A stretch of 64,000 nt of DNA from a bacterium (GCA_029551285.1 JAKPFT010000087.1:168-64167), one strand, 5' to 3'. Shown: positions 30,262 through 58,965, counted from the first letter of the stretch. The notes: generated from the sequence alone by a model not told the origin. Translations and numbers: made by a program.

Positions 30262-30301
30262 CCCCTGATTGTCAGGATAAACATTGTGGTCTCTGTCTTT
30301 C

Positions 30302-36825: not shown

Positions 36826-36897
36826 CGGCACTCCTCCAGTTGACGTCAGTGGCCACCCTGATAAAATATACTGCGTCAGAGAAACAAAGTCAAGGCC

Positions 36898-37635
36898 ATG
36901 ATGATGGACAGAAGTTGCTTCCTGAAAAGGGAGAAAAAAGTCCTGGTGATTATCCCGGCCTTCAACGAAGCCAGCAGTATCGTCGGGGTTGTTCGGGGCG
37001 TGAAACAATCTTTTCCTGAAGCCGACATCCTGGTGGTGGATGATGGCTCAAAAGACGCTACCGGAGAACTGGCTCGGCAGGAGGGGGCCGGTGTGGTGCG
37101 ACTGCCTTTCAACCTGGGGGTGGGCGCAGCCCTCCAGACAGGCTACAGGTACGCGCTGAGGTATGCCTACGAGTTCGTTGTTCAACTGGACGCCGATGGC
37201 CAGCATGACCCTCTTTACCTGCCGGAATTGCTTCGGCCGTTAAGTGAAGACCAGGTTGACCTGGTGATTGGTTCCCGGTTTCTTGAAAGAAGCAGATTTC
37301 CAGGTTCATGGACCAGGCTGGTGGGTATCAAAATCTTTGCCTTTCTGACCTGGCTGGCGACCGGGCAGAGGCTGACTGACCCGACTTCCGGCTACCGGGC
37401 CATGAGGCGGTCGGTAGTGGAATTTTTCTGCAGCGATTTTTTCCCTCATGATTATCCTGACGCTGATGTCCTCATCACTACCTGCCGGGCCGGGTTTCGC
37501 CTCAAGGAAATTCCTGTGGTGATGAAGGAACGGCTAACCGGCTGTTCTCTCCATCGCGGACTGAAACCCTTTTACTACATCTACAAGATGTTTCTATCCA
37601 TTCTGGTGAGCGTTTTGCGCCAGGACTGGAGGTAG
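36898..37635 (+). CDS. GT2 family glycosyltransferase, polyprenyl-phosphate sugar (Ppm/DPM1-like) synthase type
   Basis: 245 aa. VLVIIPAFNEASSI...ILVVDDGSKDAT...DADGQHDP motifs of dolichyl/polyprenyl-phosphate mannose or glucose synthases. Confidence 0.8.
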   Translation: MMMDRSCFLKREKKVLVIIPAFNEASSIVGVVRGVKQSFPEADILVVDDGSKDATGELARQEGAGVVRLPFNLGVGAALQTGYRYALRYAYEFVVQLDADGQHDPLYLPELLRPLSEDQVDLVIGSRFLERSRFPGSWTRLVGIKIFAFLTWLATGQRLTDPTSGYRAMRRSVVEFFCSDFFPHDYPDADVLITTCRAGFRLKEIPVVMKERLTGCSLHRGLKPFYYIYKMFLSILVSVLRQDWR

Positions 37636-37637
37636 GC

Positions 37638-38009
37638 ATGCTCTTCCGACAGAAAGTCTTTGCGATTGTGGTCAGCCTTCTGGTGATCGTGGGTATTGTG
37701 GAACTGGTCAGGCGGAGAAAACTGGCTGAGGAATATTCCTTTCTCTGGCTGGTCACCGGTTTTCTGCTGCTTCTGGTGACAGTGAAACTTGACGTGCTGA
37801 TTTTCCTGAGCCGGCTGATTGGCGCAGAAGTACCCACCAACACCCTTTTCATTTTTGGCCTGATTTTTCTCATGCTGCTGGCCCTCCACTTTTCCCTTAA
37901 GTTTTCTCAGATGGCCAGCCAGATAAAGAACCTGGCTCAGGAAGTGGCGCTTCTTCAGAAAAAAGTTGAAGACCAGGGACAGTTTCTGAGCGGGGACGGC
38001 GCCCGGTGA
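37638..38009 (+). CDS. Small 3-TM membrane protein (DUF2304-like) commonly paired with GT2 enzymes
   Basis: 123 aa with three predicted TM helices. Immediately follows the GT2 gene and overlaps the GT4 gene by 4 nt. Confidence 0.45.
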   Translation: MLFRQKVFAIVVSLLVIVGIVELVRRRKLAEEYSFLWLVTGFLLLLVTVKLDVLIFLSRLIGAEVPTNTLFIFGLIFLMLLALHFSLKFSQMASQIKNLAQEVALLQKKVEDQGQFLSGDGAR

Positions 38010-39148
38010 GAACTCAGGTGATGCGTCTGTGTTTCATTGTTGACTACTACCTTCCCCATATTGGCGGTGGCGAGGTTTACGTTTCCGGACTGGCGGAAGA
38101 GCTAGTCCGGCGGGGTCATGCCTGTGTGGTGGTCACGGCAAGGTTTGACAGGAGATTGCCTGTCAGAGAAGTGATTAACGGCGTCACCGTTGTTAGAATT
38201 TCTCTGCCGCGGCCATCCCGTCTTTGTTTTTTTGTGTTGGGGTTACCGCGGATGATGGAGGAGGCGAGAAAATCTGATGTGGTCATCGGTGCTTCCTATG
38301 GCGGGGCAGTACCGGCCTTTCTAACCGGATTTTTCTCCGGAAGACCGTGCTGCCTGATTGTCTACGAATTCATGGCTGGATTGTGGAGAAACCTGGAGTC
38401 AAATCCGGTGAGGGCCTTTTTCTACCAGGCTGTGGAACGGCTGATTGCCGGGTTACCCTTTTCCTGCTTCCTGACGCTTTCCCGTTACACCAGAAATACT
38501 CTGAGGCTTCTGGGAGTAGCTGACAATAGGCTGGAAGTTGCTTACGGCGGTGTGGACCGGCTGGTAGAAGAAAGTATCAGCAAGGAAGGACACCGAAAGG
38601 TGGACTTTGGCTTCCCGGAAAATTCATTCGTTTTCCTGACCTCTGGCCGGACCGGCATCAGCAAAGGTATAGAGTTAATGGCTCAGGCGGCCGGTTTGAT
38701 TCTGAAAGCAAGGCCGGAAGCCCGTTTTGTTTTCATTGTCACTCCAGGACACCCTGGGAAATGGCAGCAAACAGTGGCCAGTCTTAACAAACTTCCACCA
38801 GACACCTTCAGGCTCATCCCGGGTCTGCCGCGGGAGAAACTGCTACTATACCTTGCTGCCGCTGACTGTGTTATCATTCCCTCATTGTCTGAAGGTTTTG
38901 GCTTTGCGGCTCTGGAAGCCTGCTTTTTTGGCAAGCGCGTTGTGGCCACCGATGCCGGTTCTCTTCCGGAAGTTGTCTTCGGGAGATACCGACTGGTAAA
39001 ACCCGGCTCGGTAAAGGCTCTGATGGAAGGTTGTCTCCAGGCGTTAAGGGACGAGCTGGAAGAGTCTCCAGTAAAAAATTTCTCCTGGTCAAAGACTGCC
39101 GGTAAGGTGGAAAACATCTGTCTGGGACTTCTCCGGAAATGGCGATGA
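38006..39148 (+). CDS. GT4 family (GT-B) glycosyltransferase
   Basis: 380 aa. N-terminal GGGEVYVSGLAEELVRRGH and a C-terminal E...E-type GT4 region (PSLSEGFGFAALEA). Confidence 0.8.
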   Translation: MRTQVMRLCFIVDYYLPHIGGGEVYVSGLAEELVRRGHACVVVTARFDRRLPVREVINGVTVVRISLPRPSRLCFFVLGLPRMMEEARKSDVVIGASYGGAVPAFLTGFFSGRPCCLIVYEFMAGLWRNLESNPVRAFFYQAVERLIAGLPFSCFLTLSRYTRNTLRLLGVADNRLEVAYGGVDRLVEESISKEGHRKVDFGFPENSFVFLTSGRTGISKGIELMAQAAGLILKARPEARFVFIVTPGHPGKWQQTVASLNKLPPDTFRLIPGLPREKLLLYLAAADCVIIPSLSEGFGFAALEACFFGKRVVATDAGSLPEVVFGRYRLVKPGSVKALMEGCLQALRDELEESPVKNFSWSKTAGKVENICLGLLRKWR

Positions 39149-40092
39149 AACAGTGTCTTTTCTGCGGTCAAAAGGTTTTTGTCCAGCGCTATTGTGGTAT
39201 TCCGGACCGGCTGGGCATGAGTAAAAAGTTGCACGCCATCTTAGAATGTGCTTTTTGTCACTCCTTTCAGGTGGAGCCGATACCTTCGGCAGAGGAAATG
39301 GCCCGGCTTTACCCGCCAGCTTATGCCTTCAAAGAAACCACCGGCGGTCCCGGCCGAAGATTCTGGAACAGGATTGAATGGCAGATTTTTTATGCTCCGG
39401 TGCTGAGAGCGTGTGTTAATCTTGTCAGAAGACATACGGGCGTTGAGCAGGGGAAAATTCTGGATATCGGTTGTGGCAGCGGGCTGAGACTGAAGGAGTT
39501 TTCCCGGGCCGGTTTTCAGACAGAAGGGGTTGATTTCTCTAAGGAAGATGTTGACTACGCCAGGGAAAAACTGGGGCTGGCCGTCACCAGAGTCAACATT
39601 GAAGAAGAAAACTTGCCAGAGGGTAACTATGAGCTGGTGATGGCCTACTGGGTGATGGAGCACCTGAGAGAACCGGCTCTTCTAACAAGAAAGATTTACG
39701 CTGCGCTCAAATCAGGCGGCTGGGCAGTTTGTGGTGTGCCGCTGAGTGACAGTCTGGTCTCAAGGGTTTTCCGCGGCCGCTGGAGCGCGGTCAGAGAAGC
39801 GCCCAGGCACCTTGGTATTCCTTCCCGGAAAGGTATGAGAGAACTTCTGAAGCAGGCCGGATTTCAAAAAGTCTTCTGGAAACCGGTGTCTCTTTTTGAG
39901 CTGGCCGGTGATGTGGCTCTTTCGCTCTGGCCCAGGGGAAACTTTGTTCTCACCCAGAACAAACCAGGCTGGGTCGGTGTGGGTGACCGGCTGATGACAG
40001 GTTTTTTGACCCTGCTGGGCCTGCCGCTGGTGGGCCTGATTACCATCCTGAAGTTCCCGCCAGGGTTGACAGTCTTCTTCGCTCAGAAGTAG
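39139..40092 (+). CDS. Class I SAM-dependent methyltransferase
   Basis: 317 aa. ILDIGCGSGL motif I. N-terminal C4 zinc-ribbon-like CxxC..CxxC. Overlaps the GT4 gene by 10 nt. Confidence 0.75.
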   Translation: MAMKQCLFCGQKVFVQRYCGIPDRLGMSKKLHAILECAFCHSFQVEPIPSAEEMARLYPPAYAFKETTGGPGRRFWNRIEWQIFYAPVLRACVNLVRRHTGVEQGKILDIGCGSGLRLKEFSRAGFQTEGVDFSKEDVDYAREKLGLAVTRVNIEEENLPEGNYELVMAYWVMEHLREPALLTRKIYAALKSGGWAVCGVPLSDSLVSRVFRGRWSAVREAPRHLGIPSRKGMRELLKQAGFQKVFWKPVSLFELAGDVALSLWPRGNFVLTQNKPGWVGVGDRLMTGFLTLLGLPLVGLITILKFPPGLTVFFAQK

Positions 40093-40114
40093 TTCAAAGG
40101 AGTTCGGGAACAAC

Positions 40115-42277
40115 ATGAAGAAGCGGATTAAACCCGACGGTATTGACCGGAAAGACTTAAGCGGCAGCCAGATTATCCTTCTAACGGTGCTTTTGGTGCT
40201 TGCTGGTTTTTTGCTTTACTGGCCTTCCATGAAAGGTCCCTTTGTTCTTGACGATTACCACTCCATTCTTTCTAACAGGGCTCTTCAGACATTCAATCCA
40301 GCCGCTCTCTGGAATTTCACCAGAACCCGCTTTCTGACTTATTTCACGCTGGCGGCTAACTGGCGTCTGTCAGGGGAAAAGACTTTCAGTTACCATCTGG
40401 TGAATGTAGCCATCCACCTTCTGGCCACTTTTTCTTTCTGGCTTCTGGTCACCCTTTTGTTAAGAACACCAGGATTGGAAAAGACAAAACCTGCTGGACC
40501 GCCGGTCTTAACCGGTCTTGTGGCGGCAGCAGTTTTCCTGGTTCACCCAGTGGCTACCCAGGCGGTCAGCTACCTTGTTCAGCGCGCTACTTCTCTGGCA
40601 ACCTTTTTTTATCTTACCAGTGTGGTTCTTTTCTTAAAATTTCGGATGGCTGAAGGTGCTCTTCGGAAAGGAAAATGGCGATGGTACCTGCTGGCCGTGC
40701 TGACCACCTGGGCGGCGATGTTCACCAAGGAAATCTGTTTTACGCTGCCGGTGATGATAGTGATGGTTGACCTTCTTACTTTCCCCGGGAAAAAGTGGCG
40801 AGGAAGAATTTTATGTTATCTCCCATTTCTTGTCTCTCTAAGTTTCATCCCACTACTGCTTGTTGCCACAAAGAACTTTAACCTGGGCGAGTTAGGCCGG
40901 GTGGCAGAGCCAGCCGGGGCTATTTCTCCCTGGCATTACCTTTGCACTCAGTTCCGGGTCCTGGTAACTTACCTTCGTCTCCTGATTCTTCCAATCAACC
41001 AGAACCTTGACTACCAGTACACGCTTTTTCGCAGTTTTTTCCATGTGCCGGTGGTGGCCAGTTTTATTCTGCTGTTGCTGGTGGCACTTGGTGGCATCTT
41101 TGCCTGGTGGCGGGGAAACCGGCTGGCTGGCCTGGCCGTTCTCTGGTTTTTTCTGACACTTTCTGTGGAATCAAGTTTTATTCCCATAAGTGACCTCATT
41201 TTTGAGCACCGGCTCTACCTGCCGCTGGCCGGCTATGCCATGGCGTTTGCTTCTGGTTTTTACTGGTGCCAGCGTGAAGGCAGCCGCAGACTGGCTAACC
41301 TAACTCTATTTCTGCTGATGATTCTTTATTCAAGCCTCACCCTTCAGCGAAACTTTCTCTGGGCAGACGATTTAAAACTCTGGCTGGACACCGCGGCCAG
41401 GAGTCCGAACAAAGCCCGCGTCCTTAACAACCTGGGTGCAGTTTACAACAACCGCCGCCAGTATCAGCAGGCCGTCCAGGTTCTGAGTCGGGGTCTTTTC
41501 TTCGCTCCGCGTTTTTATCCACTCTACCTCAACCGCGGTCGGGCCTTGATGGAATTAGGTGACACCCGGGCCGCCCTTTCTGATTTTCTTTCAGGGCTGG
41601 CTCTCCAGCCAGAAGCCGGTGATATTCATCTCAACATTGCGGTCCTTTATGCCCAGTTAGGCGATTATCAGAAAGCCCTGTACCATCATCAGCGCTCCAT
41701 TGAACTGCTGCCGGACAGCGCCACAGCCTACAACAACCGGGCTTCCACCTATACCCGGATGGGATATTACGACTTAGCCATCGCTGACTGCGAGAAAGCA
41801 CTTTCTCTCAACCCGAAACTGGCTGAGGCTTGTTTTAACTTAGCCAGTGCCTGGGAAGAGAAAGGGGACAGAGAAAGGGCAGTCAGGTACTACACCAGAG
41901 CCATTGAGGTCAAACCTGATTATTTTGACGCCTATACCAATCGCGGGACAACCTATCGTTTTCTGGGTCAGACCGAGAAAGCCCTCGCCGACTACAGCCG
42001 GGCGATTTCCCTGAAGCCTGATAATCCTGGTGCCTATAACAACCGGGGCAATATCTATCTGGAGCGTCGTGAATATCAACGAGCCATTCAAGATTATAAC
42101 CAGACCTTGAATCTTCAGCCGGCGCATGCGGTGGCTTACTTTAACCGGGCGGTAGCCTACTTCAACCTTAAGGATTACCGTCAGGCCGCCGAAGATGTCA
42201 GAAAGGCGCAGCAGTTAGGGCTGAAGGTGCCGGCTGACTTCCTCCAGTTGCTCTCCTCAGTCGGAGCCAATCCCTGA
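40115..42277 (+). CDS. TMTC/PMT-like GT-C membrane glycosyltransferase homolog (DUF1736/PMT_2-like N-terminal polytopic domain) with C-terminal TPR array
   Basis: 720 aa. About 11 TM helices with a conserved YHLVNVAIHL motif. Then about 9 TPR repeats (AYNNRG..Y. pattern). Paralog of the 56383..58965 gene. Confidence 0.7.
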   Translation: MKKRIKPDGIDRKDLSGSQIILLTVLLVLAGFLLYWPSMKGPFVLDDYHSILSNRALQTFNPAALWNFTRTRFLTYFTLAANWRLSGEKTFSYHLVNVAIHLLATFSFWLLVTLLLRTPGLEKTKPAGPPVLTGLVAAAVFLVHPVATQAVSYLVQRATSLATFFYLTSVVLFLKFRMAEGALRKGKWRWYLLAVLTTWAAMFTKEICFTLPVMIVMVDLLTFPGKKWRGRILCYLPFLVSLSFIPLLLVATKNFNLGELGRVAEPAGAISPWHYLCTQFRVLVTYLRLLILPINQNLDYQYTLFRSFFHVPVVASFILLLLVALGGIFAWWRGNRLAGLAVLWFFLTLSVESSFIPISDLIFEHRLYLPLAGYAMAFASGFYWCQREGSRRLANLTLFLLMILYSSLTLQRNFLWADDLKLWLDTAARSPNKARVLNNLGAVYNNRRQYQQAVQVLSRGLFFAPRFYPLYLNRGRALMELGDTRAALSDFLSGLALQPEAGDIHLNIAVLYAQLGDYQKALYHHQRSIELLPDSATAYNNRASTYTRMGYYDLAIADCEKALSLNPKLAEACFNLASAWEEKGDRERAVRYYTRAIEVKPDYFDAYTNRGTTYRFLGQTEKALADYSRAISLKPDNPGAYNNRGNIYLERREYQRAIQDYNQTLNLQPAHAVAYFNRAVAYFNLKDYRQAAEDVRKAQQLGLKVPADFLQLLSSVGANP

Positions 42278-45200
42278 TTACGGCGTGTCCGTGAGAGAAA
42301 GGGCCCGCCGGAGAATTCTAATCACATCAAGGATGGTGACCGCGCTGTCTTCGTCCAGGTCAGCCACCGCAGGCCTGGCCACTTCCAGACCCAGGGCCAT
42401 TCTCAGACACACCATCACATCAAGAATGTCAATGGTGTCGTCTCCGTTCAGGTCGGCTTTCCCGTTCCAGAGGACCGGCACCGGTACCAGTTTATCGGCG
42501 GTGTCACCACTGGCCCTGGGAGACAGTTGTCCCCAGAACCAGAGCGAGCCGTTAGCCTTCACGGCCAGGGTAGCACTTTCAGCCACAGAGACGCTCACCC
42601 AGTCAGTTTCCTGACCCACCCTCACCGGAACGACCCGGTCCACGCTGGAGCCATCGCCCAGCCGGCCATAGCCGTTGTGTCCCCAGGTCCAGAGAGAACC
42701 ATCTTTCTTCAACGCCGCGCTGTGGGCTTCGCCAGCCGAGATGGCTACCCAGTCGGCTCCGCTGAGCATCACCGGATAAGGCCGGTCCACAGTGGTCCCA
42801 TCACCTAACTGGCCGTACCAGTTAGAACCCCAGGCCCAGAGCGTGCCGTTGGTCTTAAGCGCTATGGTATAACTTGTTCCAGCCGAGATGGCCAGCCAGT
42901 CAGTATCAAAGCCGATACGCACCGGGCTGGGCCGGTCAAGGTAAGTACCGTCGCCTAACTGCCCGCAACTGTTGTCACCCCAGGCCCAGAGCGTGCCGTC
43001 GGCTTTAAGGGCCACGGTGTGGCGGCCACCAGCGGAAACAGCCTTCCAGTTGTTGGCAGTACCGACCTGCTGGGGTAGATGATGGCTGCTGATGCTGCCG
43101 TCACCTAACTGTCCGCAACTGTTATCGCCCCAGGTCCAGAGCGTCCCATCGCCTCTGATGGCGGCGCTGTGTTTTCTTCCGGCAGAGACAGCCTGCCAGA
43201 ACTGGCTGCTGATGAGAAGCGGTTGGTTTCTGCTGGCGGTGGAACCATCGCCTAACTGGCCACAGTCATTTTCACCCCAGGCCCAGAGGCTACCATCACT
43301 GGCAATAGCCAGGCTATGACTGGTTCCGGTGGAGACGCGGCTCCAGGTCTTCTCAGGCAGCACCGGCACCGGCTGGCTCTTGCTCACCGTGGAACCATCG
43401 CCCAGCTGGCCGGCGCTATTTTCGCCCCAGGTCCAGAGGGTGCCGTCAGCCTTGACAGCAGCAGCGTAACTGCCACCGCCTTTCGTGCTGCGCCAATCAG
43501 TGGCGATACCGACCTGGGTGGGCGTGCTCTTGCTGGTTCGGGTGCCATCGCCTAACTGACCATAAGCATTGCTTCCCCAGGCCCAGAGTGTTCCGTTGGT
43601 GCCGTCATAGCGCAGTCCGAGGGAGTGCTGTCCGCCAGCGGCAATGGAAACCCAGGTGTTTTCCAGTCCTACCCGGTTGGGCAATTTGTTCATGGTTTCG
43701 CTGTTGACATCTTCGGAGACGCCCAACTGGCCATAGGTGTTGTTACCCCAGGCCCAGAGGGTACCGTCTTTCTTAATGGCCAGGGTGTGAGCCCATCCGG
43801 CTTCCACATCCTGCCAGTTGGTATCACTGTTAACCTGGGTTGGAGTTGAGGCTGGCCCGGTGCCGCCGGTGCCTAACTGGCCGTAGTCGTTGGCGCCCCA
43901 GGCGTAAAGAAGACCATTGCTCTTGACCGCCACCGAGTGGTACCAGCCAGCAGTAATCTTTGCCCAGTTGGTTTCCGAACCTATCTTTCTGGGCAGATAG
44001 AAATCCGTGGAGCTGCTGGTCCGGCCTAACTGACCGTAGGCGTTGTTGCCCCAGGACCAGATTGTGCCGTCGCTCTTCATCGCCAGGGTGTGGAACCAGC
44101 CGCAGGCCACAGCCACCCAGTTATTCTCGGTGCCAATCCGCACCGGCGAGTACCGGGTGACCGTAGTTCCGTCACCTAACTGGCCATAACTGTTCTGACC
44201 CCAGGCCCAGAGAGACCCGTCAGACTTGAGAGCCACCGTATGAGCCGAGCCAGCAGAAACGGCTACCCAGTCGCTATCCAGACCAATCTGCACCGGTGTT
44301 AGCCTGTTGGTGGCTGTGCCATCGCCTAACTGACCGTAGTTGTTAGCGCCCCAGGCCCAGAGGGTCCCATCGGTCTTGATGGCCAGGGAGTGGGAATGAC
44401 CGGCGGCTACGAGGCTCCAGTTGGTGTCCGTGCCAATCTGTACCGGCACCAGGGCGTCGTTATTGGTGCCATCGCCAATCTGGCCGGAGTTATTGCGTCC
44501 CCAGGCCCAGAGGGTTCCGTTACGTTTAATCCCTAAGGAATGGAACTGGCCCGCGGCAATCTTGCCCGGCGCAAAGTTGGACGGACCGGAGGCTACGGAA
44601 ACAGTTACTGTGACCAGTTCTGTTTCGGTATAAGCGTCGTCATTGATTCTGACGGTTGCGGAATAACTTAGTCCAGGCACCAGGTTGGTCCGGTTCACAG
44701 TCACACTGACGGAAACTGGCTGGTCGCTGACAGTGCCATTGGCCGGCACGATACTGGTAATCCAGTCGGCTCCCTGCTGATAAATCACCGTGCTCAGCCA
44801 GGCAACAGAACCTGTGCCGGCATTAGCCAGGTTGAAACTCATGGTGTTGATGGTGGTGCCGAAATTGAGCGTGGCTGGATTAACCGTCAGGTTGGGCGTG
44901 ACCACCATGCGCACCGGTATGGTTCTCACCTGGCTTCCGGCAGTGACGGTGATGTCACTGTTGTAAGTGCCGACAGGTAGTCCCTGGCGGTTGACTTCCA
45001 CCACCACGGTATCCACTTCTGTAGTGGTCGTGCCGGAAGCCGGGCTAATACTGGTAATCCAGGCAGCGGTCCTGGTAATGTTCCAGTTCAGGGTTCCGCC
45101 GCCGGTATTTCTGATGTTTAACTGCAGACTGGTGAGACTTCTGTCAAAGTCAAGGCTATCCGGCGTGACCAAAAGTTCCGGTGAAGCCACGGCCATCATA

Positions 45201-54200: not shown

Positions 54201-55825
54201 TACAAGTAAGGACCGCCCTGACCACTGTCATTATTGCCCCAGCTGGGATAATCGTTCCACCACCGCGTCTGGGCTGCACCAACCGGAATACCGTGGCCCT
54301 GGTCGCTTCTTCTCGCGGTCATATCCACAATCCGCTGCTCACAGGTGACTGTATCAGTCCTCGTGGTTCCACCAACTGACTGCCGGTAAAGAGCAGTTCC
54401 GCCGAAGTTCCAGTCATTGGGATACTGAACACCCGGGTCAATGTCGTTTACGGTAATCATTGCCGGAGCCGGGTCCTCGGAATGGCCTAAAGCAAGTTGA
54501 AAGGTGTCTCCATGTTCCATCTTGCCGCTGGTGCGCACCACTATGTAAAACCGGCTTCCGTAAGTAGCGCTGATTAACTTGGTAAACCCGGAGAAAAGTA
54601 TTTCGGTCGTACCGTCATCCTCCCACTGTGCGGTAAACTCAGCAATCTTATAGTCAACACTAAAATCCGACGGGTCAAAAATTTTGGCAGTCAACGGGTC
54701 AGAATCGCTTGAGTCCCGGTAAAGAGCCACAGAAGCAATTGACCTGTTAGGCAGGGAACTAACCGAAGTCTGCGTCAGGTAGCATCTCACACTGGTAAGA
54801 TTCATTACATCAGGGTTGCCATAGCCGGTCTGCGTGGTGACATCAAAGTAAAGCACCGCGGTGCGACAACTCTTAGAAAGAATTCCCTGGTTCTGCACCG
54901 TCATCTTACCTGCGGTAATACTTACTCTGACGACGCGGATGGTGCCGCTGGAGATGTACGGCGGGTCTTGCCCAGGTTGTAGCGCAGGGGGCGGGCTGCC
55001 GAAGCTTGCCCCAATTTGGTAGACTCCGGGATCCCGGGCCTGGGTGTTCCATTCGTGCGACGTCGTTCCGGGCCCGAACGTCCCAATTGAGACCCAGCGA
55101 GAGCCCGGGGTTAGTATGTCCTTGTAGTAGAGGGTTGTGGAATGTGAAGGAAGGGGCGGGTGCCAGGTAATCTGGTAAATTCCGTCCTGCCTGGTTAACT
55201 CTCCGGCCAGGGATGGATTGATAATGCCAGCGCCAGGAAACTGCCAGACGATGGTCTGGCTGGTGTAACTGCCGGTGAAGTCGGGGGGATTGGGAACGGA
55301 GGACAAGGTGTAATTCCATCCGATTCTCGTTATTCGTAGCGTAAAATCGTCGTTGGCCTCTATATTTGAAGTATTCGCCATAATGACGATAAAGTAGGTG
55401 CAGGACCAGGTACCTGGCGGATTCTCCGTCCAGGTATTAACATATTCATCGGCAAAGTCAATGGTAACCTCAGAGCCAATAGCCGGGTTGTTAACCGTGC
55501 CGTTGGTCAGAACCGTATCGCCAGCGCCGAAGTTCCCATCTCCGTTGTCCCGGTAGATGGCGACACTGGCAATCTCTGTTGAATCCAGGTTAGGCACACC
55601 AACATCGTTAAACTGCACCAGAACAGACTGAAAAACATCACCTGAGTTATCCGACTGAAGGTCCAGTTTGAAAACAGCCATGGGGTTTCTTGCCGGAGTC
55701 CAGGGGGTGAGGGAAATATCCGTACTGGTGCCGGTAATCGTCGCCTGACAGTTGGCCTTTAGTATCAGGAGAAAAAGTACTCCTGACCACAACCCTATCC
55801 TGAAGCGGTTAATTTTGCCTGTCAT
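42278..55825 (-). CDS. Giant secreted protein (4515 aa): large internally duplicated Thr/Ser-rich region, divergent InlB B-repeat, three BACON-like domains, about 14 or more RCC1 repeats, C-terminal dockerin-like domain
   Basis: Signal peptide MTGKINRFRIGLWSGVLFLLILKANCQA. Paralogous ~900-aa segments (for example GRGRKVLGYFADLHL... versus GRGRTILGRYIDLNL...). BACON-like LxFxxxxxTxSFxIxNxGxGxLNWxx units. GQLGDGT-type RCC1 blades. Terminal DLNGDDTIDILDVMVCLRMALG...DLDEDSAVTILDVIRILRRA. Confidence 0.7.
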   Translation of the reverse strand: MTGKINRFRIGLWSGVLFLLILKANCQATITGTSTDISLTPWTPARNPMAVFKLDLQSDNSGDVFQSVLVQFNDVGVPNLDSTEIASVAIYRDNGDGNFGAGDTVLTNGTVNNPAIGSEVTIDFADEYVNTWTENPPGTWSCTYFIVIMANTSNIEANDDFTLRITRIGWNYTLSSVPNPPDFTGSYTSQTIVWQFPGAGIINPSLAGELTRQDGIYQITWHPPLPSHSTTLYYKDILTPGSRWVSIGTFGPGTTSHEWNTQARDPGVYQIGASFGSPPPALQPGQDPPYISSGTIRVVRVSITAGKMTVQNQGILSKSCRTAVLYFDVTTQTGYGNPDVMNLTSVRCYLTQTSVSSLPNRSIASVALYRDSSDSDPLTAKIFDPSDFSVDYKIAEFTAQWEDDGTTEILFSGFTKLISATYGSRFYIVVRTSGKMEHGDTFQLALGHSEDPAPAMITVNDIDPGVQYPNDWNFGGTALYRQSVGGTTRTDTVTCEQRIVDMTARRSDQGHGIPVGAAQTRWWNDYPSWGNNDSGQGGPYLYSQWTYNWFGASDHAYPYGPEELEVMRLTAPYPVLGLDLAGVALDPLHDGQERLYKLVVTFEDTYPQDFDYGKLASHPMAPHPNIAIYQDTGDGNFDWRTDTCIWATEDSTLRRPPAPGGHIINNWESVVPDVPAWSANTLYRKGDYVKPTTDNGFVYECLQVVGFGAPYPDPLESGYSGNAEPDWPTEIGEKVVDGGVIWVNRGHSRPPRWRVTMYFQNLPLEATCDDNVDYFIAISSAPDHQWVTRTPKYGMNFRAYIEESTDDEHSFIQFCHMSNLDGTPNPAHEDNSKPQLADVGTRSKLYRHFQPSGRNNGDLNALPPVPVADMDGCKEARTVFSIEPWYVASEAPMTSNWQDGITGSTDPVDPDGWPVPILAMNMCDSNYPADGSAYSDSETFEWIRVWFKGTNGFKPTDLAPLSDNAYSGVSLWLDTPAPYGTDTKGLPQIFIPGMHSFTGYGSNPVDTCVRLSADSLQWYNYDGTVWSPENDDPGGLEQDDPNYNPNKPPDAIEPSSGKRYYKSYYVILKPKTAIQLYPDDLWTGQYRGYDYYICVRGRGIQDARYTSNWWERGIDAGDVVTAFIRGNEDIQFGSGLKASIDPVKTVHSAYPTVMPVFFTDLTQAGQTINPQQKTAVIGYNMVAPPGTTCYLSDLRIHILDDGTRNFDITDFISISNVVDAVGECNDPNGGCGIALYKDDGLIPGVFDNLDSRVTMRAVPTLESHPGFTGDPNGPWIVHLWFETNPDNGVVADIPTTDTGDDEGIDYFLVVQPRSTMESGDDISFRHWSDDVLEQGEGIMFTFTGGQRQPYKQIRTNTLTNKTVSTSILANLVTPSQRVDATSDPVGAIGLNVYDAISANTLNRVRVYFNPVGTSPDTHPETILAPLSGNNSSGLSVWADANNNGRFDWRSDRFLPINVAGWRSDFDDGYVDGDGTATAGSGGHAARTEIPAGQELTFFKPSDKVCWYDADGDSVWSSGDGLWVDLDGDRRFTSGTDSVIYQGSLTGNEYGVLLHNNLYGFAYYDEDSDGVWDDGEDIYFLGRGRKVLGYFADLHLSPVVSVPANDNNGLTDFFIAFRTGDKIKFTDQFSLSLPANAVTYSSGYSYANTNLTTNVVTARIPVFLNNLVQAGDRIYKDEYHAVIGINLYDDQLDEDPPGNPIPAHQHYFSEVNLYLTGTNVFGDLAFLSTGASSGVGLWKDNGDGIFDRNTDTFVQPLSISYVGSDRVRIRFADGAAPVPDTDDPEHKNDYFIVLHSSEVLTSGNTITAEIRSSLSVVQGEGLKFSSPAGIPETSEEYRATSSLIGTLISLTVASLYDSPVPPVGTTFYGRDAQVTCSVTSPDTNAPSGTRYVCTGWTGTGSVPATGTGTMVTFTINQNSTITWQWISEYQLTVTAVGSGSVWPSGSAWRQAGEVVIIAATANAGNQFSKWVVDGVDSPVTQPFITITMNQGHTVEAHFVPGNPGDRQLSLSVSPAGSGSVQAEPTSGGVTYPVGFYPDGFTPVTITAVPAAGYVFASWSGGGLDNSNEPVEGSTKNPIVITMNANRSLVARMVPVNRGLTATAYPAVNQGVLPNNGPDSADRGLALFGINIFSEATAPGKWKSFDVTFTDVDLTDSVSFDTDTLNTFFSLAVYRDDSPVDNGWFSALDNNVATTLSAWTSPAPGVYTATCTLTTPEDLPADDTGASAGADYYLALKTTAALPYGLRFAVGVSNFIIATNDVDAPYTPAGTTTTNTIVAEAAINDLVSVTGFDYSIPEEMSEPGKNYLMLADNADLITRYRYQHYLTDDNLDGETANLTKFTSRPMVLPIDTPTALLGIDAAGNAGVQKALATYQELVLNSVTVTFKDTSGGRFDPKTTLTALNAVNPGQSGVAIYADTNNNGIFDAAVDTAVPVDATRGTNGFTWGTDGDDNTTLTIYLDATAANAALPATSDGRSDFFVVVRVSQNNVPYGASFKTFIKQGDISFVQVPQAAKEALSIAESKVAAAPLVFALSDITARYIDPRSSNIPIIGVNLAFGTNSTETLDYIKVTLSGDGLSASDFLPISGGTPPAGAVVPSGLMLYRDNKAAGLVGSFDASDIFVPIHSHSWVYENGKLTGIVQPETAIAVSGNVLANDTGANRGDDYFIILRTSSTLKYQDKIQVSVGATDVSISGHASAAGGLNSDADREKDGSQPIVANVTTLLSDLTRAGQRMNPSGAPTAVMKFTAYSSDETGVETVYLQSVVVHLIPGTGFNLSDLAFFTRDKNSGLALYADSNKNGVFDEEDQLVVPVVAPSSLSRSDEPYYRFLIQPENPPQVSTTGSTFFVVLRASASMEDSDTFQVRIHGSNIEPLRSYGVGYGTKVAADPTSKLYQEAVVASAGPEPEKLTLTAALNDTGNDFTQDWYLLVKSGAAAGKVYRIVSVDHTRTVVTCAGANFVTAGVAGGDQVRVLKVNGFSFAKLSTNVISGNPYFSPLVLTDLIGPNGTGVDATSDPVAAIGISVCDLAANTTLNSLRVYFNPLAPAGSLPTPGQALASISSTRSSGLSLWRDNGDGIFNPATDTLVPVTSSGWQSDSSGYITGQVAPEGSRLSLFAASDKVSWYDQDANGFWSPGDALWVDANGNKRYDNGETLLAGTVTAGTTGIDVSSGEYGFAYRDGNSNGQYDSGEGLYFLGRGRTILGRYIDLNLVSPEPLPTAFSQNGPTYFLVFRTGENLEYKDSFSLSLPSNALVFSAGRSYGDTNLTTGAVTARLPVFLTDLVSTNDTISRSEQKAIIRIHAYDSTSAEANYLREVNVYFTGTNVVSDLAPLGITSDSGVALYRDTGNGVFSSQSDTFVTPTSITWIDATRVRMTFASNADTLIPDNPGTYFFIVVKGNSVATLGDTIRGEIRSICSSPTGEGLKFVTGTGTAHLSGEYLLGNSFSLVGPALSVQPASLDFGFTTETASFTITNTGTGLLNWSLGTAVYQQGNNWVVSASPSNGVLSGGSSTTVTVTVSRNGLSAGNYTAALPVTSNANNTAVTIMMAVASPELLVTPDSLDFDRSLTSLQLNIRNTGGGTLNWNITRTAAWITSISPASGTTTTEVDTVVVEVNRQGLPVGTYNSDITVTAGSQVRTIPVRMVVTPNLTVNPATLNFGTTINTMSFNLANAGTGSVAWLSTVIYQQGADWITSIVPANGTVSDQPVSVSVTVNRTNLVPGLSYSATVRINDDAYTETELVTVTVSVASGPSNFAPGKIAAGQFHSLGIKRNGTLWAWGRNNSGQIGDGTNNDALVPVQIGTDTNWSLVAAGHSHSLAIKTDGTLWAWGANNYGQLGDGTATNRLTPVQIGLDSDWVAVSAGSAHTVALKSDGSLWAWGQNSYGQLGDGTTVTRYSPVRIGTENNWVAVACGWFHTLAMKSDGTIWSWGNNAYGQLGRTSSSTDFYLPRKIGSETNWAKITAGWYHSVAVKSNGLLYAWGANDYGQLGTGGTGPASTPTQVNSDTNWQDVEAGWAHTLAIKKDGTLWAWGNNTYGQLGVSEDVNSETMNKLPNRVGLENTWVSIAAGGQHSLGLRYDGTNGTLWAWGSNAYGQLGDGTRTSKSTPTQVGIATDWRSTKGGGSYAAAVKADGTLWTWGENSAGQLGDGSTVSKSQPVPVLPEKTWSRVSTGTSHSLAIASDGSLWAWGENDCGQLGDGSTASRNQPLLISSQFWQAVSAGRKHSAAIRGDGTLWTWGDNSCGQLGDGSISSHHLPQQVGTANNWKAVSAGGRHTVALKADGTLWAWGDNSCGQLGDGTYLDRPSPVRIGFDTDWLAISAGTSYTIALKTNGTLWAWGSNWYGQLGDGTTVDRPYPVMLSGADWVAISAGEAHSAALKKDGSLWTWGHNGYGRLGDGSSVDRVVPVRVGQETDWVSVSVAESATLAVKANGSLWFWGQLSPRASGDTADKLVPVPVLWNGKADLNGDDTIDILDVMVCLRMALGLEVARPAVADLDEDSAVTILDVIRILRRALSLTDTP

Positions 55826-55838
55826 AGATTTCCTCCGG

Positions 55839-55875
55839 AAAAAAAGGACTGGCCCTGTAGAAAGGCCAGTCCTGG
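55839..55875 (-). terminator. Intrinsic-terminator-like hairpin (10-bp perfect stem plus U7 on the minus strand) ending about 2 nt before the RBS of the giant gene; candidate attenuator
   Basis: Plus strand AAAAAAA-GGACTGGCC-ctgtagaaa-GGCCAGTCC. Read on the minus strand this is a stem-loop followed by UUUUUUU, then CCGGAGG (RBS) and the ATG. Coordinates approximate. Confidence 0.4.
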
Positions 55876-56025
55876 TAAACTGCCGAGAAAGAAAAATTTT
55901 TCATCGGCGCCGCCGTTTAGTATTTTGACGCTACCTGCTGTGCTCTCGTTTAGTTGTTAATCTTTAACAGGCATTATACCCTTTTTTTCTCTTCTGCGCA
56001 AGATATGTGAATTTGACCGGAAGTT

Positions 56026-56285
56026 CCGACATAGGAAAGGTTGTTTAGGAGTATGTCTAACTTCGGGAAGATTTCTGGGCACACGCCTTGTCGCAGACAA
56101 GACTACGCAGCCAATCGGTTGCTCGGCGAACTCGCTCGCCATGCGGCGAGCTCAAACACCGCCGAGAAAGGTATTGCGTCCCGGTTGAACTTGTCCGGTC
56201 CGCTTACCGACCGCTGCCGCTTTGGCTGCTTGTCTTGTAGCTGCGCCCTCGGCTACCGTGCCTTCAAATCTTCCCTCGTTGACAC
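56026..56285 (+). repeat. Copy 4 (long form) of the repeated element, in the 5' leader of the second TMTC-like gene
   Basis: ...GGAGTATGTCTAACTTCGGGAAGATTTCTGGGCACACGCC...about 105-bp insert...GCTGCCGCTTTGGCTGCTTGTCTTGTAGCTGCGCC...CAAATCTTCCCTCGTTGACAC. Perfect 10-bp terminal inverted repeat GGGAAGATTT / AAATCTTCCC. Confidence 0.75.
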
Positions 56286-56382
56286 TTGGTCCTATGTCGG
56301 AATTTTAGAATTTGACCTGGCTTGTTGGCTGATGTATCCTTACTCCCGTGGCCTTTTCCGGCAGGGCTATCCCGGTAATCCT

Positions 56383-58965
56383 ATGAAGAAGAAGGTGTTA
56401 GTTGTTTGCCTGCTGCTGATAGTCGGTGTTGTCCTTTATTCCAACACCTTCCGTGTGCCTTTCACCTTTGACGATTATCACTCCATTGTCCTGAATGACA
56501 AAATTCATTCCTGGGGCGACTGGTCTGCCATCTGGTCTTTCAGCCGCGCGCGTTTTCTCACCTATCTTACCTTTGCGCTAAACTACCACTTCGGCGGCCT
56601 GCATGTTACTGGCTACCACCTGGTGAACCTTTTGATTCACCTGTCGGCTTCCATCGTCCTTTTCTTTTTCGTTTTACTTCTGACAGGGACAGCGTTTGAG
56701 CCTGAGCGGTCATTCCTGATTGCGGCTGTGGCTTCGCTAATTTTCCTGATTCACCCGCTCCAGACTCAGGCGGTTACCTACATCGTCCAGCGGGCAGCCA
56801 GCCTGGCGACACTGTGTTACCTGGCGACGCTCTGGCTCTATCTTAAGTATCGGCTTTCTCCTGAAAGAAAACGCTGGCTTTACTATTGCCTGGCGCTGCT
56901 TGTTGCCGTCGCGGGAATGTTCACCAAGGAAATCTGTTTTACCCTGCCGCTGATGATTCTGATGGTTAACCTTATCTCAGGAAAGGCCTGGCGCCGTGAC
57001 TGCCTGCCTTTTCTTCTCACCATGGCGGTCGTGCCGGCGCTTCACCTTTCGGGCGTGAAAGGCGCTGGACTGGGAGAAATCGGCCGGCTTGCCGAACCCA
57101 GCGGCACCATCGGGCCTCTAACTTACCTTTTTACCCAGTTTCGGGTGCTGGTCAGTTACCTGCGGCTTTTGCTTTTTCCGATTAAGCAGAACCTTGACTA
57201 CGACTACCCGGTGTACCACAGTTTTCTGGTGCCGCCGGTCTGGGGCAGTTTTCTGCTGCTGGCGTTTCTGTCTGGTCTGGGTTTCTATGCTTACCGGAAG
57301 GGGCAGCGGTTTTTTAGCCTGGCCGTGGCCTGGTTTTTTGTGGCGCTGGCTGTAGAAAGCAGTATCTACCCCATCGCCGATGTCATCTTTGAACACCGTC
57401 TTTACTTAGCGATGCCAGCATATGCTCTGGCAGTGGCGCTGCTTTTCGCTTACCTGAAAGGACAGGCGCCAAAATTTCTCTGGGCTACGGCTCTGGTTCT
57501 TCTGATGGCTGGCTACTCTACGCTGGCCTACACGCGTAACAATGTCTGGAAAAGCGCGGTCAGCCTCTGGCAGGATGTGGTGAGGAAAAGCCCGGGAAAA
57601 GCCAGAGCCCACCACAACCTTGGGCATGCCCTCACCGGCGAGAAAAAACTTGACGCGGCGCTAAAAGAGTTTAACCTTGCCTTAAAACTTAACCCGAATT
57701 TCCATCTCACCTACTTTACCCGGGGCAGTCTTTACGCCCAGATGGGCCAGTACCAGAAGGCACTGGATGATTTCAACACCCTGCTGAAGATAAGTCTGGA
57801 TAAGACCAGGCTAAGTCATGTTTATGTCGCCCGCGGGAAACTTTATGCGGAATTGGGAGAGATGGAAAAAGCCCTGAGTGATTTTAACCAGGCCATCAGG
57901 CTTGACAGGAAAAGTGCGATTGCCTTCAGCGAGCGCGGCCTGCTTTTTGCCAAACACGGACAGTATCAGCAGGCCATCAGGGATTTCAACGAGGCTCTGA
58001 GACTGAACAGCCACCTGGCTGACGCCTACAACAACCGGGGTCTGGCCCGGGTCTACCAGGGAGAGATTGAAGCTGCCCTGATGGACTTTAGAAGGGCGCT
58101 GAATGAGATGCCTGACTTTGCCAGCGTCTATGTGAACATGGGACTGGCCTATTTCCGGCGAGGCGACTGGCCGCAGGCTCTCAAAGCGTATCAGAAGGCG
58201 CTGGAGTTAAACAGTGAACTTTCCAGTGCCTACGCGGGGCTGGCACTGGTATATCGCAAGATGGGTCAGACAGAAAAAGCCAGGCAGCAACTGGAATCGG
58301 CCCTGGCCGCGAAGCCAGGGGATAAAACGCTGCTGAAGGCTCTGGAAGACCTGAAAAAAGAAAGCGCAGCCATGGCTTTGTCCAGCGTTCGCTCGCTAGC
58401 TCTGTCTTACTGTGAAAAGGGAAACGCTTTCCGGGAAAAGGGAGACTGGCTGGCCGCAATAGAACAGTACAATCTGGCTTTGAAGGAAGACCCGACTTTT
58501 GCTGCCGCCTACTACAACCGCGGCCGTACCTACCAGGAATTAGGAAAAAACGAGGAAGCACTGAACGACTACCTCCTGGCGCTGAAATATAATCCGAAAG
58601 ATGCCGAAGCCTGGAATAACAAGGGTTTTCTCTTAGACCAGCAGGGGAAACTTGACCAGGCCATCAGCGATTACTCCCGGGCGATTCTCTACGACCGCGG
58701 CAACAGCCAGGCTTACAACAACCGCGGGAATGCCTTCTTCAAGAAAGGTGAGTACGAGAAGGCTATCGCGGATTACAGCCAGGCCCTTGGTCTCAACCCG
58801 GCGCTGGCTCAGGCTTACCGGAACCGCGGGATGGCTTACGGGAAACTTAAGGAATACGAAAAAGCCGCCCTTGATTTTCAGAAGTATCTGGAGCTGAACC
58901 CGGATGACCCGAAGAAGGATAGCCTGAAAAAATTCATTGAAAAGCACATCAAGGGTGGGTCTTAA
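56383..58965 (+). CDS. Second TMTC/PMT-like GT-C membrane glycosyltransferase homolog with a long TPR array (start chosen at MKKKVLVV)
   Basis: About 860 aa from the chosen start. The same N-terminal polytopic domain as 40115..42277 (FTFDDYHSI...GYHLVNLLIHL), then about 14 TPR repeats. The track ORF extends upstream across repeat copy 4, which I do not accept as coding. Confidence 0.65.
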   Translation: MKKKVLVVCLLLIVGVVLYSNTFRVPFTFDDYHSIVLNDKIHSWGDWSAIWSFSRARFLTYLTFALNYHFGGLHVTGYHLVNLLIHLSASIVLFFFVLLLTGTAFEPERSFLIAAVASLIFLIHPLQTQAVTYIVQRAASLATLCYLATLWLYLKYRLSPERKRWLYYCLALLVAVAGMFTKEICFTLPLMILMVNLISGKAWRRDCLPFLLTMAVVPALHLSGVKGAGLGEIGRLAEPSGTIGPLTYLFTQFRVLVSYLRLLLFPIKQNLDYDYPVYHSFLVPPVWGSFLLLAFLSGLGFYAYRKGQRFFSLAVAWFFVALAVESSIYPIADVIFEHRLYLAMPAYALAVALLFAYLKGQAPKFLWATALVLLMAGYSTLAYTRNNVWKSAVSLWQDVVRKSPGKARAHHNLGHALTGEKKLDAALKEFNLALKLNPNFHLTYFTRGSLYAQMGQYQKALDDFNTLLKISLDKTRLSHVYVARGKLYAELGEMEKALSDFNQAIRLDRKSAIAFSERGLLFAKHGQYQQAIRDFNEALRLNSHLADAYNNRGLARVYQGEIEAALMDFRRALNEMPDFASVYVNMGLAYFRRGDWPQALKAYQKALELNSELSSAYAGLALVYRKMGQTEKARQQLESALAAKPGDKTLLKALEDLKKESAAMALSSVRSLALSYCEKGNAFREKGDWLAAIEQYNLALKEDPTFAAAYYNRGRTYQELGKNEEALNDYLLALKYNPKDAEAWNNKGFLLDQQGKLDQAISDYSRAILYDRGNSQAYNNRGNAFFKKGEYEKAIADYSQALGLNPALAQAYRNRGMAYGKLKEYEKAALDFQKYLELNPDDPKKDSLKKFIEKHIKGGS

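Follow-up and report, generated by a model that had tools for sequence, protein, structure and literature searches.

A predicted bacterial operon encoding a homolog of the animal TMTC protein O-mannosyltransferases

The uncultivated bacterium studied here is predicted from its sequence to have a five-gene operon, one of whose products is truly homologous to the animal protein O-mannosyltransferases of the TMTC family. The operon lies within a 64,000-nucleotide stretch of DNA (the window), and a check of the open reading frames (ORFs) in 36898-58965 found all of the genes at the positions given in the original prediction (Table 1). Pfam searches, translation and the 38% identity between the two GT-C/tetratricopeptide repeat (TPR) proteins bore out the proposed GT2, DUF2304, GT4 and methyltransferase genes, the YHLVN/TPR membrane protein, the 4515-aa giant protein and the second paralog; the original interpretation as a whole is partly supported. 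The locus is probably a conserved operon that serves glycosylation at the outer side of the cytoplasmic membrane, and its dependence on a GT-C enzyme that uses a polyprenyl-phosphate sugar is very likely.

Table 1. Features of the glycosylation locus and the adjoining genes (positions are those of the window)
Feature	Position	Strand	Basis or detail
Promoter-like site, candidate operon promoter	36840..36867	+	TTGACG, 16 nt, TG-TAAAAT; ~30 bp upstream of GT2 start
GT2, 245 aa	36898..37635	+	Pfam Glycos_transf_2, 8.9e-27
DUF2304 small membrane protein, 123 aa	37638..38009	+	Pfam DUF2304, 6.1e-25
GT4 (GT-B fold), cytoplasmic, 380 aa	38006..39148	+	Pfam Glycos_transf_1 / Glyco_transf_4
SAM-dependent methyltransferase, 317 aa	39139..40092	+	Pfam Methyltransf_23, 1.8e-21
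TMTC-family GT-C glycosyltransferase with TPR, 720 aa	40115..42277	+	Homology and motifs
Giant secreted protein, 4515 aa	42278..55825	-	Pfam domains
Second TMTC-family GT-C/TPR paralog, 860 aa	56383..58965	+	Translation; divergent from giant gene

The cassette genes are tightly packed and leave no room for an additional ORF. The DUF2304 gene starts 3 bases past the GT2 stop and is overlapped by 4 bases by the GT4 gene, which is in turn overlapped by 10 bases by the methyltransferase gene. In a consensus scan the promoter-like site had 10 of 12 consensus matches with an extended -10, a consensus match alone. The five genes occur in identical order in two relatives (loci L001 and L003, ~60% identical), and three more phyla have the GT2 and DUF2304 pair next to GT-C homologs, which makes four in all. 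Because of this recurrence, the gene order cannot be attributed to chance. None of the five cassette proteins matched a flippase family (GtrA, Wzx or ArnE/F-like) in Pfam or NCBIfam.

The 720-aa GT-C protein comprises an 11-helix membrane domain (residues 1 to ~417) followed by ~9 C-terminal TPR repeats that are predicted to be periplasmic. An 11-TM GT-C fold with a non-cytoplasmic C-terminal TPR domain is also what marks a TMTC. Its motifs are DD46-47, YHLVN93-97, HP144-145, KE205-206, DY299-300 and EHRLY364-368. The 860-aa protein is a paralog (38% identity, E 1e-148) with ~13 TPR repeats and the same catalytic motifs, (F/L)DDYHSI and YHLVN being present in both; its listed ORF begins at a TTG at 56041, and the real start is at 56383. 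The two belong to a family of 35,137 clusters at E<=1e-3 that is covered by no Pfam model and includes multi-paralog arrays with divergent TPR domains.

A profile of this family scored 81-124 bits against 16 TMTC1-4 sequences, and the reverse search gave 77-106 bits. In that reverse search the TMTC HMM gave 82 and 84 bits on the window proteins, the higher score belonging to the 860-aa paralog. Profile alignment with hhalign related the GT-C family to TMTC with a probability of 99.95% (E 2e-38, 379 columns), and the controls were low (ArnT 3.2 bits, Pmt1 -7.7 bits). Of the Pfam models suggested for checking the assignment, Glycos_transf_2 and DUF2304 were detected in the donor genes; neither PMT_2 and DUF1736 nor any other Pfam model matched either window membrane domain at E<=10, or the membrane part of 14 family members.

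The family also has no sequence match among PDB chains. This absence of Pfam and PDB matches, together with the degeneracy of motifs M2 and M3 relative to TMTC, would fit non-catalytic scaffolds or chaperones derived from a GT-C enzyme, with the proximity of GT2 and DUF2304 a coincidence. We consider that explanation highly improbable. Eight motif residues (D46, D47, K205, E206, D299, E364, R366 and Y368) do not vary among 46 homologs of 34-66% identity, which indicates selection on an active site; moreover, the GT2 and DUF2304 adjacency recurs in four phyla, and the reading frames in the window are overlapping or near-contiguous. The GT-C fold and catalytic acidic loop expected of these proteins were recovered, the fold through structural matches to GT-C enzymes and the loop through the invariant DD.

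The GT2 is of the polyprenyl-phosphate sugar synthase type, with VVDDGS and DADGQH (DXD) motifs, and lacks the C-terminal transmembrane pair of GtrB and ArnC. Its best NCBIfam matches are PpgS (111 bits), AglJ (85.5) and ArnC (47), all under the equivalog cutoffs, with PgfS among the weak matches; PpgS (NF058614), with a cutoff of 370 bits, is thus the top match and not an equivalog. Sequence matches in the PDB are to Dol-P-Man synthase (5mlz, 5.3e-12), ArnC (2.1e-11) and GtrB (4.8e-5). The DUF2304 protein has ~3 TM helices and a C-terminal helix, and its gene directly follows that of the GT2, as in pairs of the GacI/GacJ and PpgS/Rv3632 type. In those pairs the DUF2304 member, GacJ or Rv3632, binds or stimulates the synthase, and by analogy the window DUF2304 protein is a predicted partner and activator of the GT2. 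The sugar placed on polyprenyl phosphate is no less likely to be an N-acetylhexosamine (HexNAc) than mannose. Mannose, the sugar originally proposed, is rather unlikely, and finds no support in the best GT2 match (PpgS) or in the GT-C enzymes, which are missing the S-H-K-S-Y part of M2, modeled as contacting mannose.

The remaining two cassette genes may modify this sugar. The GT4 could extend the lipid-linked donor by a second sugar or take part in building the acceptor; its homologs (3e-49, 2e-47) adjoin the GT-C/GT2/DUF2304 module in the Bacteroidota loci L057 and L058. The methyltransferase, which has a Cys-rich N-terminal segment and is kept in L001 and L003, may methylate the sugar.

We propose a pathway that would follow the known "three-component" logic, with a bacterial TMTC-family member as the transferase. 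Family membership suggests that the GT2, a peripheral protein that the DUF2304 partner would hold and activate at the membrane, would load polyprenyl phosphate with sugar taken from a nucleotide sugar. More speculatively, the cytoplasmic GT4 and methyltransferase could elaborate the lipid-linked sugar in the manner of archaeal Agl enzymes, which work on dolichyl monophosphate; a methylated disaccharide is one possible product. The product would then be flipped across the membrane, a step for which no gene was identified. Fold, homology and catalytic motifs suggest that the 11-TM GT-C would transfer the sugar to the acceptor using the invariant DD loop and the K/E, D and R residues. Its periplasmic TPR domain may help to choose the acceptor, and the second paralog could serve another client set from the same donor.

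By analogy with the characterized members of the TMTC sequence family, all of which glycosylate proteins, and with the architecturally identical TfpW, which does so too, the acceptor is most likely to be Ser/Thr on folded proteins that are secreted or at the surface; whether the acceptor is a protein at all we judge to be evenly balanced. Both characterized DUF2304-partnered synthases (GacI/GacJ with GacL, and PpgS/Rv3632) feed GT-C enzymes that modify polysaccharides, and PpgS is the top curated match of the GT2. It is therefore possible, if somewhat unlikely, that the locus is a glycan-decorating system of the Gac/Gtr/PpgS type, in which polyprenyl-P-HexNAc from GT2/DUF2304 would be added by the GT-C as a side-branch on envelope polysaccharide, LPS or lipid, the TPR domain would dock envelope-assembly machinery, and the giant gene would be a mere neighbor. 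The module in L057 sits among two GT4s, one GT2, a WsaF-like GT and two methyltransferases, polysaccharide-export proteins of the BcsC and PgaA types also have TPR domains, and giant or Ser/Thr-rich proteins are not generally associated with the family. However, the window GT-C belongs to none of the GacL, GtrC, YfhO or ArnT types and is homologous along its full length to the TMTCs, whose known members act on proteins. Four of its five best GT-C structural matches are protein glycosyltransferases (Pmt4, AglB, Pmt2 and STT3B), and a single glycan acceptor would poorly explain the multi-paralog arrays with divergent TPR domains.

Under the preferred reading of a protein acceptor, the giant protein and the other secreted proteins of the island are candidate clients. 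The giant protein has a signal peptide, 13 RCC1 repeats (two propellers), three BACON_2 domains, Flg_new_2 and a HYDIN-type Ig domain by Pfam, which covers ~3400 aa of it sparsely. Its C-terminal dockerin is weak (18.4 bits vs the Pfam cutoff of 22.9), and among the neighbors described as dockerin-bearing, one (23707-24900) is above the cutoff and no others are. To call the giant protein "extremely Thr/Ser-rich" was an overstatement: its Ser+Thr content is 18.5% (31% in the richest 150-aa window), compared with 15-23.5% in other secreted neighbors and 8-13% in cytoplasmic proteins of the window. This content is ordinary among beta-rich secreted proteins, and composition analysis found no mucin-like tracts in the giant protein.

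That the giant protein is the dedicated substrate is doubtful, and an O-mannosylation system specific to it, with both flanking paralogs acting on it, is improbable. The arrangement of cassette GT-C, giant gene and second GT-C is shared by the window, L001 and the genome containing L003 and L005, and in each of the three the GT-C gene and the gene convergent with it have abutting or overlapping stop codons (in the window TGA and TTA directly abut at 42275-42280). L001 and L003 have giant orthologs (71% and 74% identity, respectively) adjoining the cassette, and in L005 the giant N-terminus (65%) adjoins the ortholog of the second paralog, the same position as in the window. In addition, TfpW and Pgf give examples of bacterial GT-C genes that adjoin their own substrate genes, and the Ig-like, BACON and beta-propeller domains are the kind of folded domain modified by TMTC and TMEM260. 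However, this synteny is confined to relatives with 60-75% identical proteins and may simply be inherited, and in L001 a different gene (VWA/PD40) lies between the cassette and the giant ortholog. The co-occurrence with giant Thr-rich proteins that had been anticipated did not hold outside these relatives: an ORF of 1500 aa or longer is nearby in only 3 of 78 distant loci, cassette-bearing loci of other phyla are without giant genes, and we found no general association of the GT-C family loci with giant or Ser/Thr-rich proteins. The modest Ser+Thr content and the lack of support for mannose also weigh against a giant-specific O-mannosylation system. Beyond these relatives, the N-terminal region of the giant protein has a single homolog, on a contig showing no GT-C, which is uninformative.

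A broader proposal, which we advance tentatively and regard as unlikely in its full form, is that bacterial TMTC homologs are protein O-glycosyltransferases acting on folded surface-protein domains, in this locus those of the giant RCC1/BACON protein and the secreted proteins near it. The donor would be a small methylated glycan on polyprenyl monophosphate made by GT2/DUF2304, GT4 and the methyltransferase. Such a system would be widespread, unrecognized and periplasmic, a prokaryotic relative of animal cadherin O-mannosylation, built on a family with paralog arrays in Omnitrophota and further uncultivated phyla.

TMTC enzymes perform cadherin O-mannosylation, and TMTC3 mutation causes cobblestone lissencephaly; according to a 2021 analysis, the TMTCs' own transferase activity had not been demonstrated. 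In the literature searched, prokaryotic TMTC homologs are mentioned only in passing. The present analysis shows that these homologs form a very large family outside Pfam coverage that has kept its catalytic motifs and is coupled to GT2 and DUF2304 in four phyla. The compact, expressible operon would allow donor, enzyme and candidate clients to be tested together, making it a tractable bacterial model of a poorly understood human enzyme family. It could also open the way to a TMTC-type enzyme structure and help to trace the origin of the TMTC branch of protein O-glycosylation. For Omnitrophota biology, the findings suggest possible glycosylation of the large surface proteins to which attachment or predation has been ascribed.

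Among known systems, the TMTC1-4 enzymes of metazoans (CAZy GT105), which O-mannosylate cadherins and protocadherins in the ER, are homologous to the window GT-C across the entire catalytic domain. They share 11 TM helices with the N-terminus inside and a C-terminal TPR domain on the non-cytoplasmic side, have several paralogs in each genome, and conserve DD (M1), KE..T (M4), D (M5), E/R/Y (M7), YHLVN and HP..T..V. The DD pair of both window paralogs (D46/D47 in the 720-aa protein) lines up with the DD that TMTCs carry in their first extracytoplasmic loop, and K205, E206 and T210 of the 720-aa protein with M4, KE(T/Q)xxT. In contrast, M2 (SHKSYRP), modeled in TMTC as contacting mannose, loses S-H-K-S-Y in the bacterial family through an 11-residue deletion in the hhalign alignment, with only the Arg (R72) retained, and RxD of M3 becomes RxT/S. 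The DW of M5 becomes DY, with D299 present and the Trp replaced by an invariant Tyr, and the Arg of M7 (ERxxY) is displaced by one residue, with E364, R366 and Y368 present. Judged by alignment, the M4, M5 and M7 residues look functionally equivalent to the TMTC metal- and phosphate-binding motifs. DUF1736 (PF08409, the TM7-TM8 loop) is undetected in the bacterial family, and the window gene is bacterial and in an operon with its presumed donor synthase.

Fungal and actinobacterial PMTs (GT39), which work with Ppm1, have no detectable sequence relationship to the window GT-C and no shared PMT/PMT_2 match; they resemble it at the fold level only and carry a MIR domain in place of TPR repeats. 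The published description of TfpW, the pilin O-arabinofuranosyltransferase of Pseudomonas aeruginosa, gives it 11 TM helices, an N-terminus in the cytoplasm, a DDX motif in the first periplasmic loop and, at its C-terminal end, a large TPR domain in the periplasm. Its donor is a polyprenyl-P-sugar, its acceptor is a protein, and its gene lies beside that of the substrate. However, its substrate is a small pilin, and its donor is D-Araf from DprE1/DprE2-type genes rather than GT2/DUF2304. The GacI/GacJ/GacL system of Streptococcus pyogenes and PpgS/Rv3632 of Mycobacterium tuberculosis likewise have a GT2 synthase gene just upstream of an activating DUF2304 partner, feeding an outer-face GT-C. 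They differ in adding GlcNAc or GalNAc to cell-wall polysaccharides and in a GT-C without a TPR domain (per the description of GacL), and the window cassette has no Wzx/GtrA-type flippase. Finally, streptococcal Pgf and GtrB/PgtC2 also make an Und-P-sugar with a GT2 and transfer it through a GT-C to Ser/Thr of extracytoplasmic proteins, and the Pgf cluster encodes its own adhesin substrates; their GT-C is of the YfhO type without TPR domains, and their acceptors are disordered poly-Ser/Thr tracts, which are absent from the window giant protein.

All genes named in the original prediction, which read this region as a TMTC/PMT-like O-mannosylation system dedicated to the giant secreted protein, were recovered by ORF mapping and Pfam scans. 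The first five form a single-operon layout: taken in order, neighbouring genes are 3 bases apart, overlap by 4 bases, overlap by 10 bases and are 22 bases apart, and a promoter-like site (10 of 12 consensus positions matched) precedes the GT2 gene by 30 bp. The two membrane proteins with tetratricopeptide repeats (TPR) are paralogs (38% identity overall, E 1e-148). The second starts at ATG 56383 and not at TTG 56041, where its mechanical ORF opens 114 codons upstream of a conserved MKKK start; judging from the homologs, which have no counterpart of it, this extension (56041-56382, + strand) is probably not translated. In PADLOC, the methyltransferase matched nothing but a generic methyltransferase (mad2, 43 bits).

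Features of the cassette, the giant gene and their surroundings in the window
Feature	Position	Strand	Remarks
CODH/ACS cluster	1865-11041	-	CdhD, ACS beta subunit, Prismane-type CODH, pyridine-nucleotide oxidoreductase
DRTGG/AAA_26 protein and corrinoid activator RACo	13169-16167	+	opposite strand to CODH/ACS
Ribonucleotide reductase, class-type	20820-22895		
Secreted-protein island, first part	23707-37008	-	flanks cassette
GT2	36898-37635	+	Pfam Glycos_transf_2, 8.9e-27
DUF2304 protein	37638-38009	+	Pfam DUF2304, 6.1e-25
GT4	38006-39148	+	
SAM methyltransferase	39139-40092	+	
Methyltransferase N-terminal segment	39139-39270	+	Cys-rich (CLFC...C...C..C), zinc ribbon-like
Membrane+TPR protein, 720 aa	40115-42277	+	C-terminal 300 residues are TPR repeats
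Giant protein, 4515 aa	42278-55825	-	convergent on operon
Membrane+TPR protein, 860 aa	56383-58965	+	divergent from giant gene, on its far side
IS200-like Y1 transposase	58949-59632	-	Pfam Y1_Tnp, 1.1e-7; 17-base overlap with 3' end of second paralog
Secreted-protein island, second part	59731-62535	-	flanks cassette

Neither PMT_2 nor DUF1736, the Pfam models suggested for the membrane+TPR proteins, matches them even at E ≤ 10, and no PDB chain was matched by single sequence or by family profile. The identity of the membrane domain was therefore settled through structure and direct comparison. Sixteen TMTC1-4 catalytic-domain sequences (human, frog, zebrafish and fly) were rebuilt from the alignment of Eisenhaber et al. 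2021 (PMC7801869, Additional file 1) and set against a profile built from alignment A2 of the bacterial membrane domain. The bacterial HMM scored all 16 at 81-124 bits. In the reverse direction, the TMTC HMM gave the bacterial domains 77-106 bits, and the two window proteins reached 82 and 84 bits. Aligned with hhalign, the two families matched with 99.95% probability (E 2e-38) over 379 columns that cover the entire domain. Control rows from the same published alignment scored 3.2 bits (ArnT) and -7.7 bits (Pmt1), so the TMTC signal is more than hydrophobic composition. At the sequence level, the window proteins and the TMTC catalytic domain are truly homologous. They also have the TMTC-type architecture originally proposed, 11 transmembrane helices followed by C-terminal TPR repeats.

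Mapping of the seven TMTC motifs onto the bacterial/TMTC alignment gave a graded picture. M1 (DD) corresponds to D46-D47, which is invariant in 46 homologs, M4 (KE..T) to K205-E206..T210, M5 (DW) to D299-Y300, and M7 (ERxxY) to E364-H365-R366-L-Y368, with the Arg displaced by one residue. The YHLVN motif spotted earlier exactly matches the YHLVN of TMTC2. Of M3, the Arg (R157) is conserved and the Asp is not. M2 (SHKSYRP) lines the mannose in models of TMTCs; in the bacterial proteins an 11-residue deletion removes S-H-K-S-Y and only the Arg (R72) is retained.

The bacterial TMTC-like family is very large: 1.84 billion representatives yielded 35,137 clusters at E ≤ 1e-3, 19,585 at 1e-10 and 5,248 at 1e-30. 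Its members are spread over Omnitrophota, Nitrospirota, Planctomycetota, Desulfobacterota, Bacteroidota and further phyla. Their membrane domain falls outside every Pfam model, and where sources name the proteins the sole name is "tetratricopeptide repeat protein". Several copies often stand in tandem, with 126 genes across 78 loci. Tandem groups of two or three paralogs with no nearby GT2 occur in eight loci from Omnitrophota and other groups (L004, L014, L015, L030, L034, L038, L047 and L079), which suggests that one distant donor locus serves many transferases.

On the donor side, the window GT2 resembles the PDB sequences of Dol-P-Man synthase (5.3e-12), ArnC (2.1e-11) and GtrB (4.8e-5), and the curated families PpgS (111 bits), AglJ (85.5) and ArnC (47), all far under equivalog cutoffs. 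It has a DXD motif and lacks the C-terminal transmembrane pair. Two DUF2304 proteins are known to stimulate synthases of this kind: GacJ binds and stimulates the GlcNAc-P-undecaprenol synthase GacI, whose GlcNAc the GT-C enzyme GacL places on cell-wall polysaccharide, and Rv3632 stimulates the GalNAc-P-polyprenol synthase PpgS (bioRxiv 10.1101/180810). Together, these matches and precedents make the enzyme class, a polyprenyl-phosphate sugar synthase, clear. The matches span several specificities; the mannose of the original prediction is not supported, and HexNAc is at least as likely.

The linkage of the GT-C gene to these donor genes is meaningful. The same five-gene order is found in two relatives about 60% identical (L001/L002 and L003). 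Among 78 species-representative distant loci (30-38% identity), GT2+DUF2304 adjoins the GT-C gene in one Nitrospirota locus (L044) and three Bacteroidota loci (L054, L057 and L058, the last two of which also keep a GT4 homolog), and lies within 8 kb of it in L048 (Desulfobacterota). By a rough estimate that assumes independent loci and about one GT2+DUF2304 locus per 3-Mb genome, the pair would be expected by chance in a 20-kb window in ~0.7% of cases, versus 6% observed. In unbiased neighbour clustering, this GT2 family stood out as the recurrent neighbour of highest specificity, present in at least 13 of 80 loci. A different donor-synthesis module may be present in L028, L060 and L063, where an ArnC-like GT2 without DUF2304 (E 1e-24 to 1e-30 against the GT2 of the window), a GFO/IDH/MocA oxidoreductase and an ABC ATPase lie ≤6 kb from the GT-C gene; in L028 and L063 this set also includes a ~446-aa protein with no Pfam hit.

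Linkage to the giant protein is only local. A giant ortholog adjoins the cassette in L003 (74% identity), another follows it in L001 (71%) with a VWA/PD40 gene inserted between, and in L005, from the same genome as L003, the second paralog adjoins the giant's N-terminus (65%); the entire cassette/giant/second-paralog arrangement is thus conserved among close relatives. Only 12 of the 78 distant loci have an ORF of ≥1000 aa within 10 kb, and only three one of ≥1500 aa, with Ser+Thr contents of 3-23%; none of the cassette-bearing loci of other phyla has a giant neighbour. Judged by the refutation criterion of the original prediction itself, these loci count against a dedicated enzyme-substrate pair. 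The giant protein may still be one client, with which the locus data are compatible. In L058 (Lentimicrobiaceae), three proteins with T9SS C-terminal sorting domains (Por_Secre_tail; 273-2599 and 7455-9533), one of them a trypsin-like protease, flank the GT-C/GT2/DUF2304/GT4 genes and are possible protein clients in that lineage.

The giant protein has 13 RCC1 repeats, three BACON_2 domains, Flg_new_2, a HYDIN-type Ig domain and a dockerin under the Pfam cutoff. Its Ser/Thr richness had been overstated: Ser+Thr amount to 18.5%, reaching 31% in the richest 150-aa window, and there are no mucin-like tracts. Likewise, a single neighbour carries a dockerin above the Pfam cutoff. Pfam covers almost nothing of roughly the first 3400 residues, and secondary tblastn hits reveal a ~480-aa internal duplication (residues 1367-1854 and about 2996-3461, roughly 42% identity). 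Only two homologs of the N-terminal region were found among 5.8 billion proteins, the distant one on an uninformative contig. The stop codons of the giant gene and the last operon gene abut directly (TGA|TTA, 42275-42280, 0 intergenic bases), which leaves terminators no space; transcription from the two sides must therefore end in collision or read-through. The GT-C stop-to-stop junction in L001 (6779/6780) also has 0 bases, although the convergent gene differs (VWA/PD40), and in L003 the GT-C and convergent large genes overlap by 17 bases (5344-5360).

The surrounding secreted-protein island includes CHB_HEX_C/Fn3_assoc proteins (one of which has a dockerin), a Flg_new_2 protein of 1436 aa whose Ser+Thr content is 23.5%, a protein of 542 aa that no Pfam family matches, a PQQ-propeller/Kre9_KNH/He_PIG protein of 945 aa and a PD40 protein of 934 aa. 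In L005, a homolog of the Y1 transposase (6759-7529, - strand) follows the orthologous paralog in the equivalent place, and this conserved position suggests a domesticated or REP-associated (RAYT-like) gene over a recent insertion; related genes also occur in L009 and L042. The CODH/ACS cluster bears out the description of the organism as a Wood-Ljungdahl anaerobe.

The best-supported reading of the operon is a three-component-type extracytoplasmic glycosylation pathway; which sugar it carries, which acceptor receives it and what part the giant protein plays are matters of inference. Based on family membership, GT2 and DUF2304 would load a sugar onto polyprenyl phosphate. More speculatively, GT4 and the methyltransferase might elaborate the lipid-linked sugar at the cytoplasmic face, as the haloarchaeal Agl pathway builds and methylates its glycan on dolichyl monophosphate. 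A flippase, for which the five-gene cassette has no gene, would move the product outward, and the TMTC-family GT-C would transfer the sugar to an acceptor chosen with the help of its periplasmic TPR domain. We give a protein acceptor an even chance. It is favoured because characterised TMTC-family members act on proteins, because protein glycosyltransferases make up four of the five top-scoring GT-C structural matches, because TfpW, of the same architecture (11 transmembrane helices, a DDX motif in loop 1 and a periplasmic TPR domain), O-glycosylates the pilin encoded next to it, and because the divergent TPR domains within paralog arrays point to many clients. The main rival, decoration of a glycan as in the Gac and PpgS systems, appears possible but rather doubtful; the DUF2304 precedents GacI/GacJ and PpgS/Rv3632 and the GT-rich context of L057 speak for it.

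In the searchable literature, prokaryotic TMTC homologs are mentioned only in passing, no functional study of them was found, and the Omnitrophota giant-protein literature checked does not link TMTC-like genes to giant proteins. Two elements are new: by sequence, this very large Pfam-uncovered bacterial protein family belongs to the TMTC family, and it is genetically coupled to a donor module of GT2+DUF2304(+GT4+methyltransferase). For glycobiologists, this homology and the operon should be useful and somewhat surprising. Compared with the TMTC family, the window GT-C is a sequence-level but divergent member, departing from it in M2 and in DUF1736. The operon as a whole would work like the known three-component systems GacI/J/L, PpgS/Rv3632, Gtr and Pgf.
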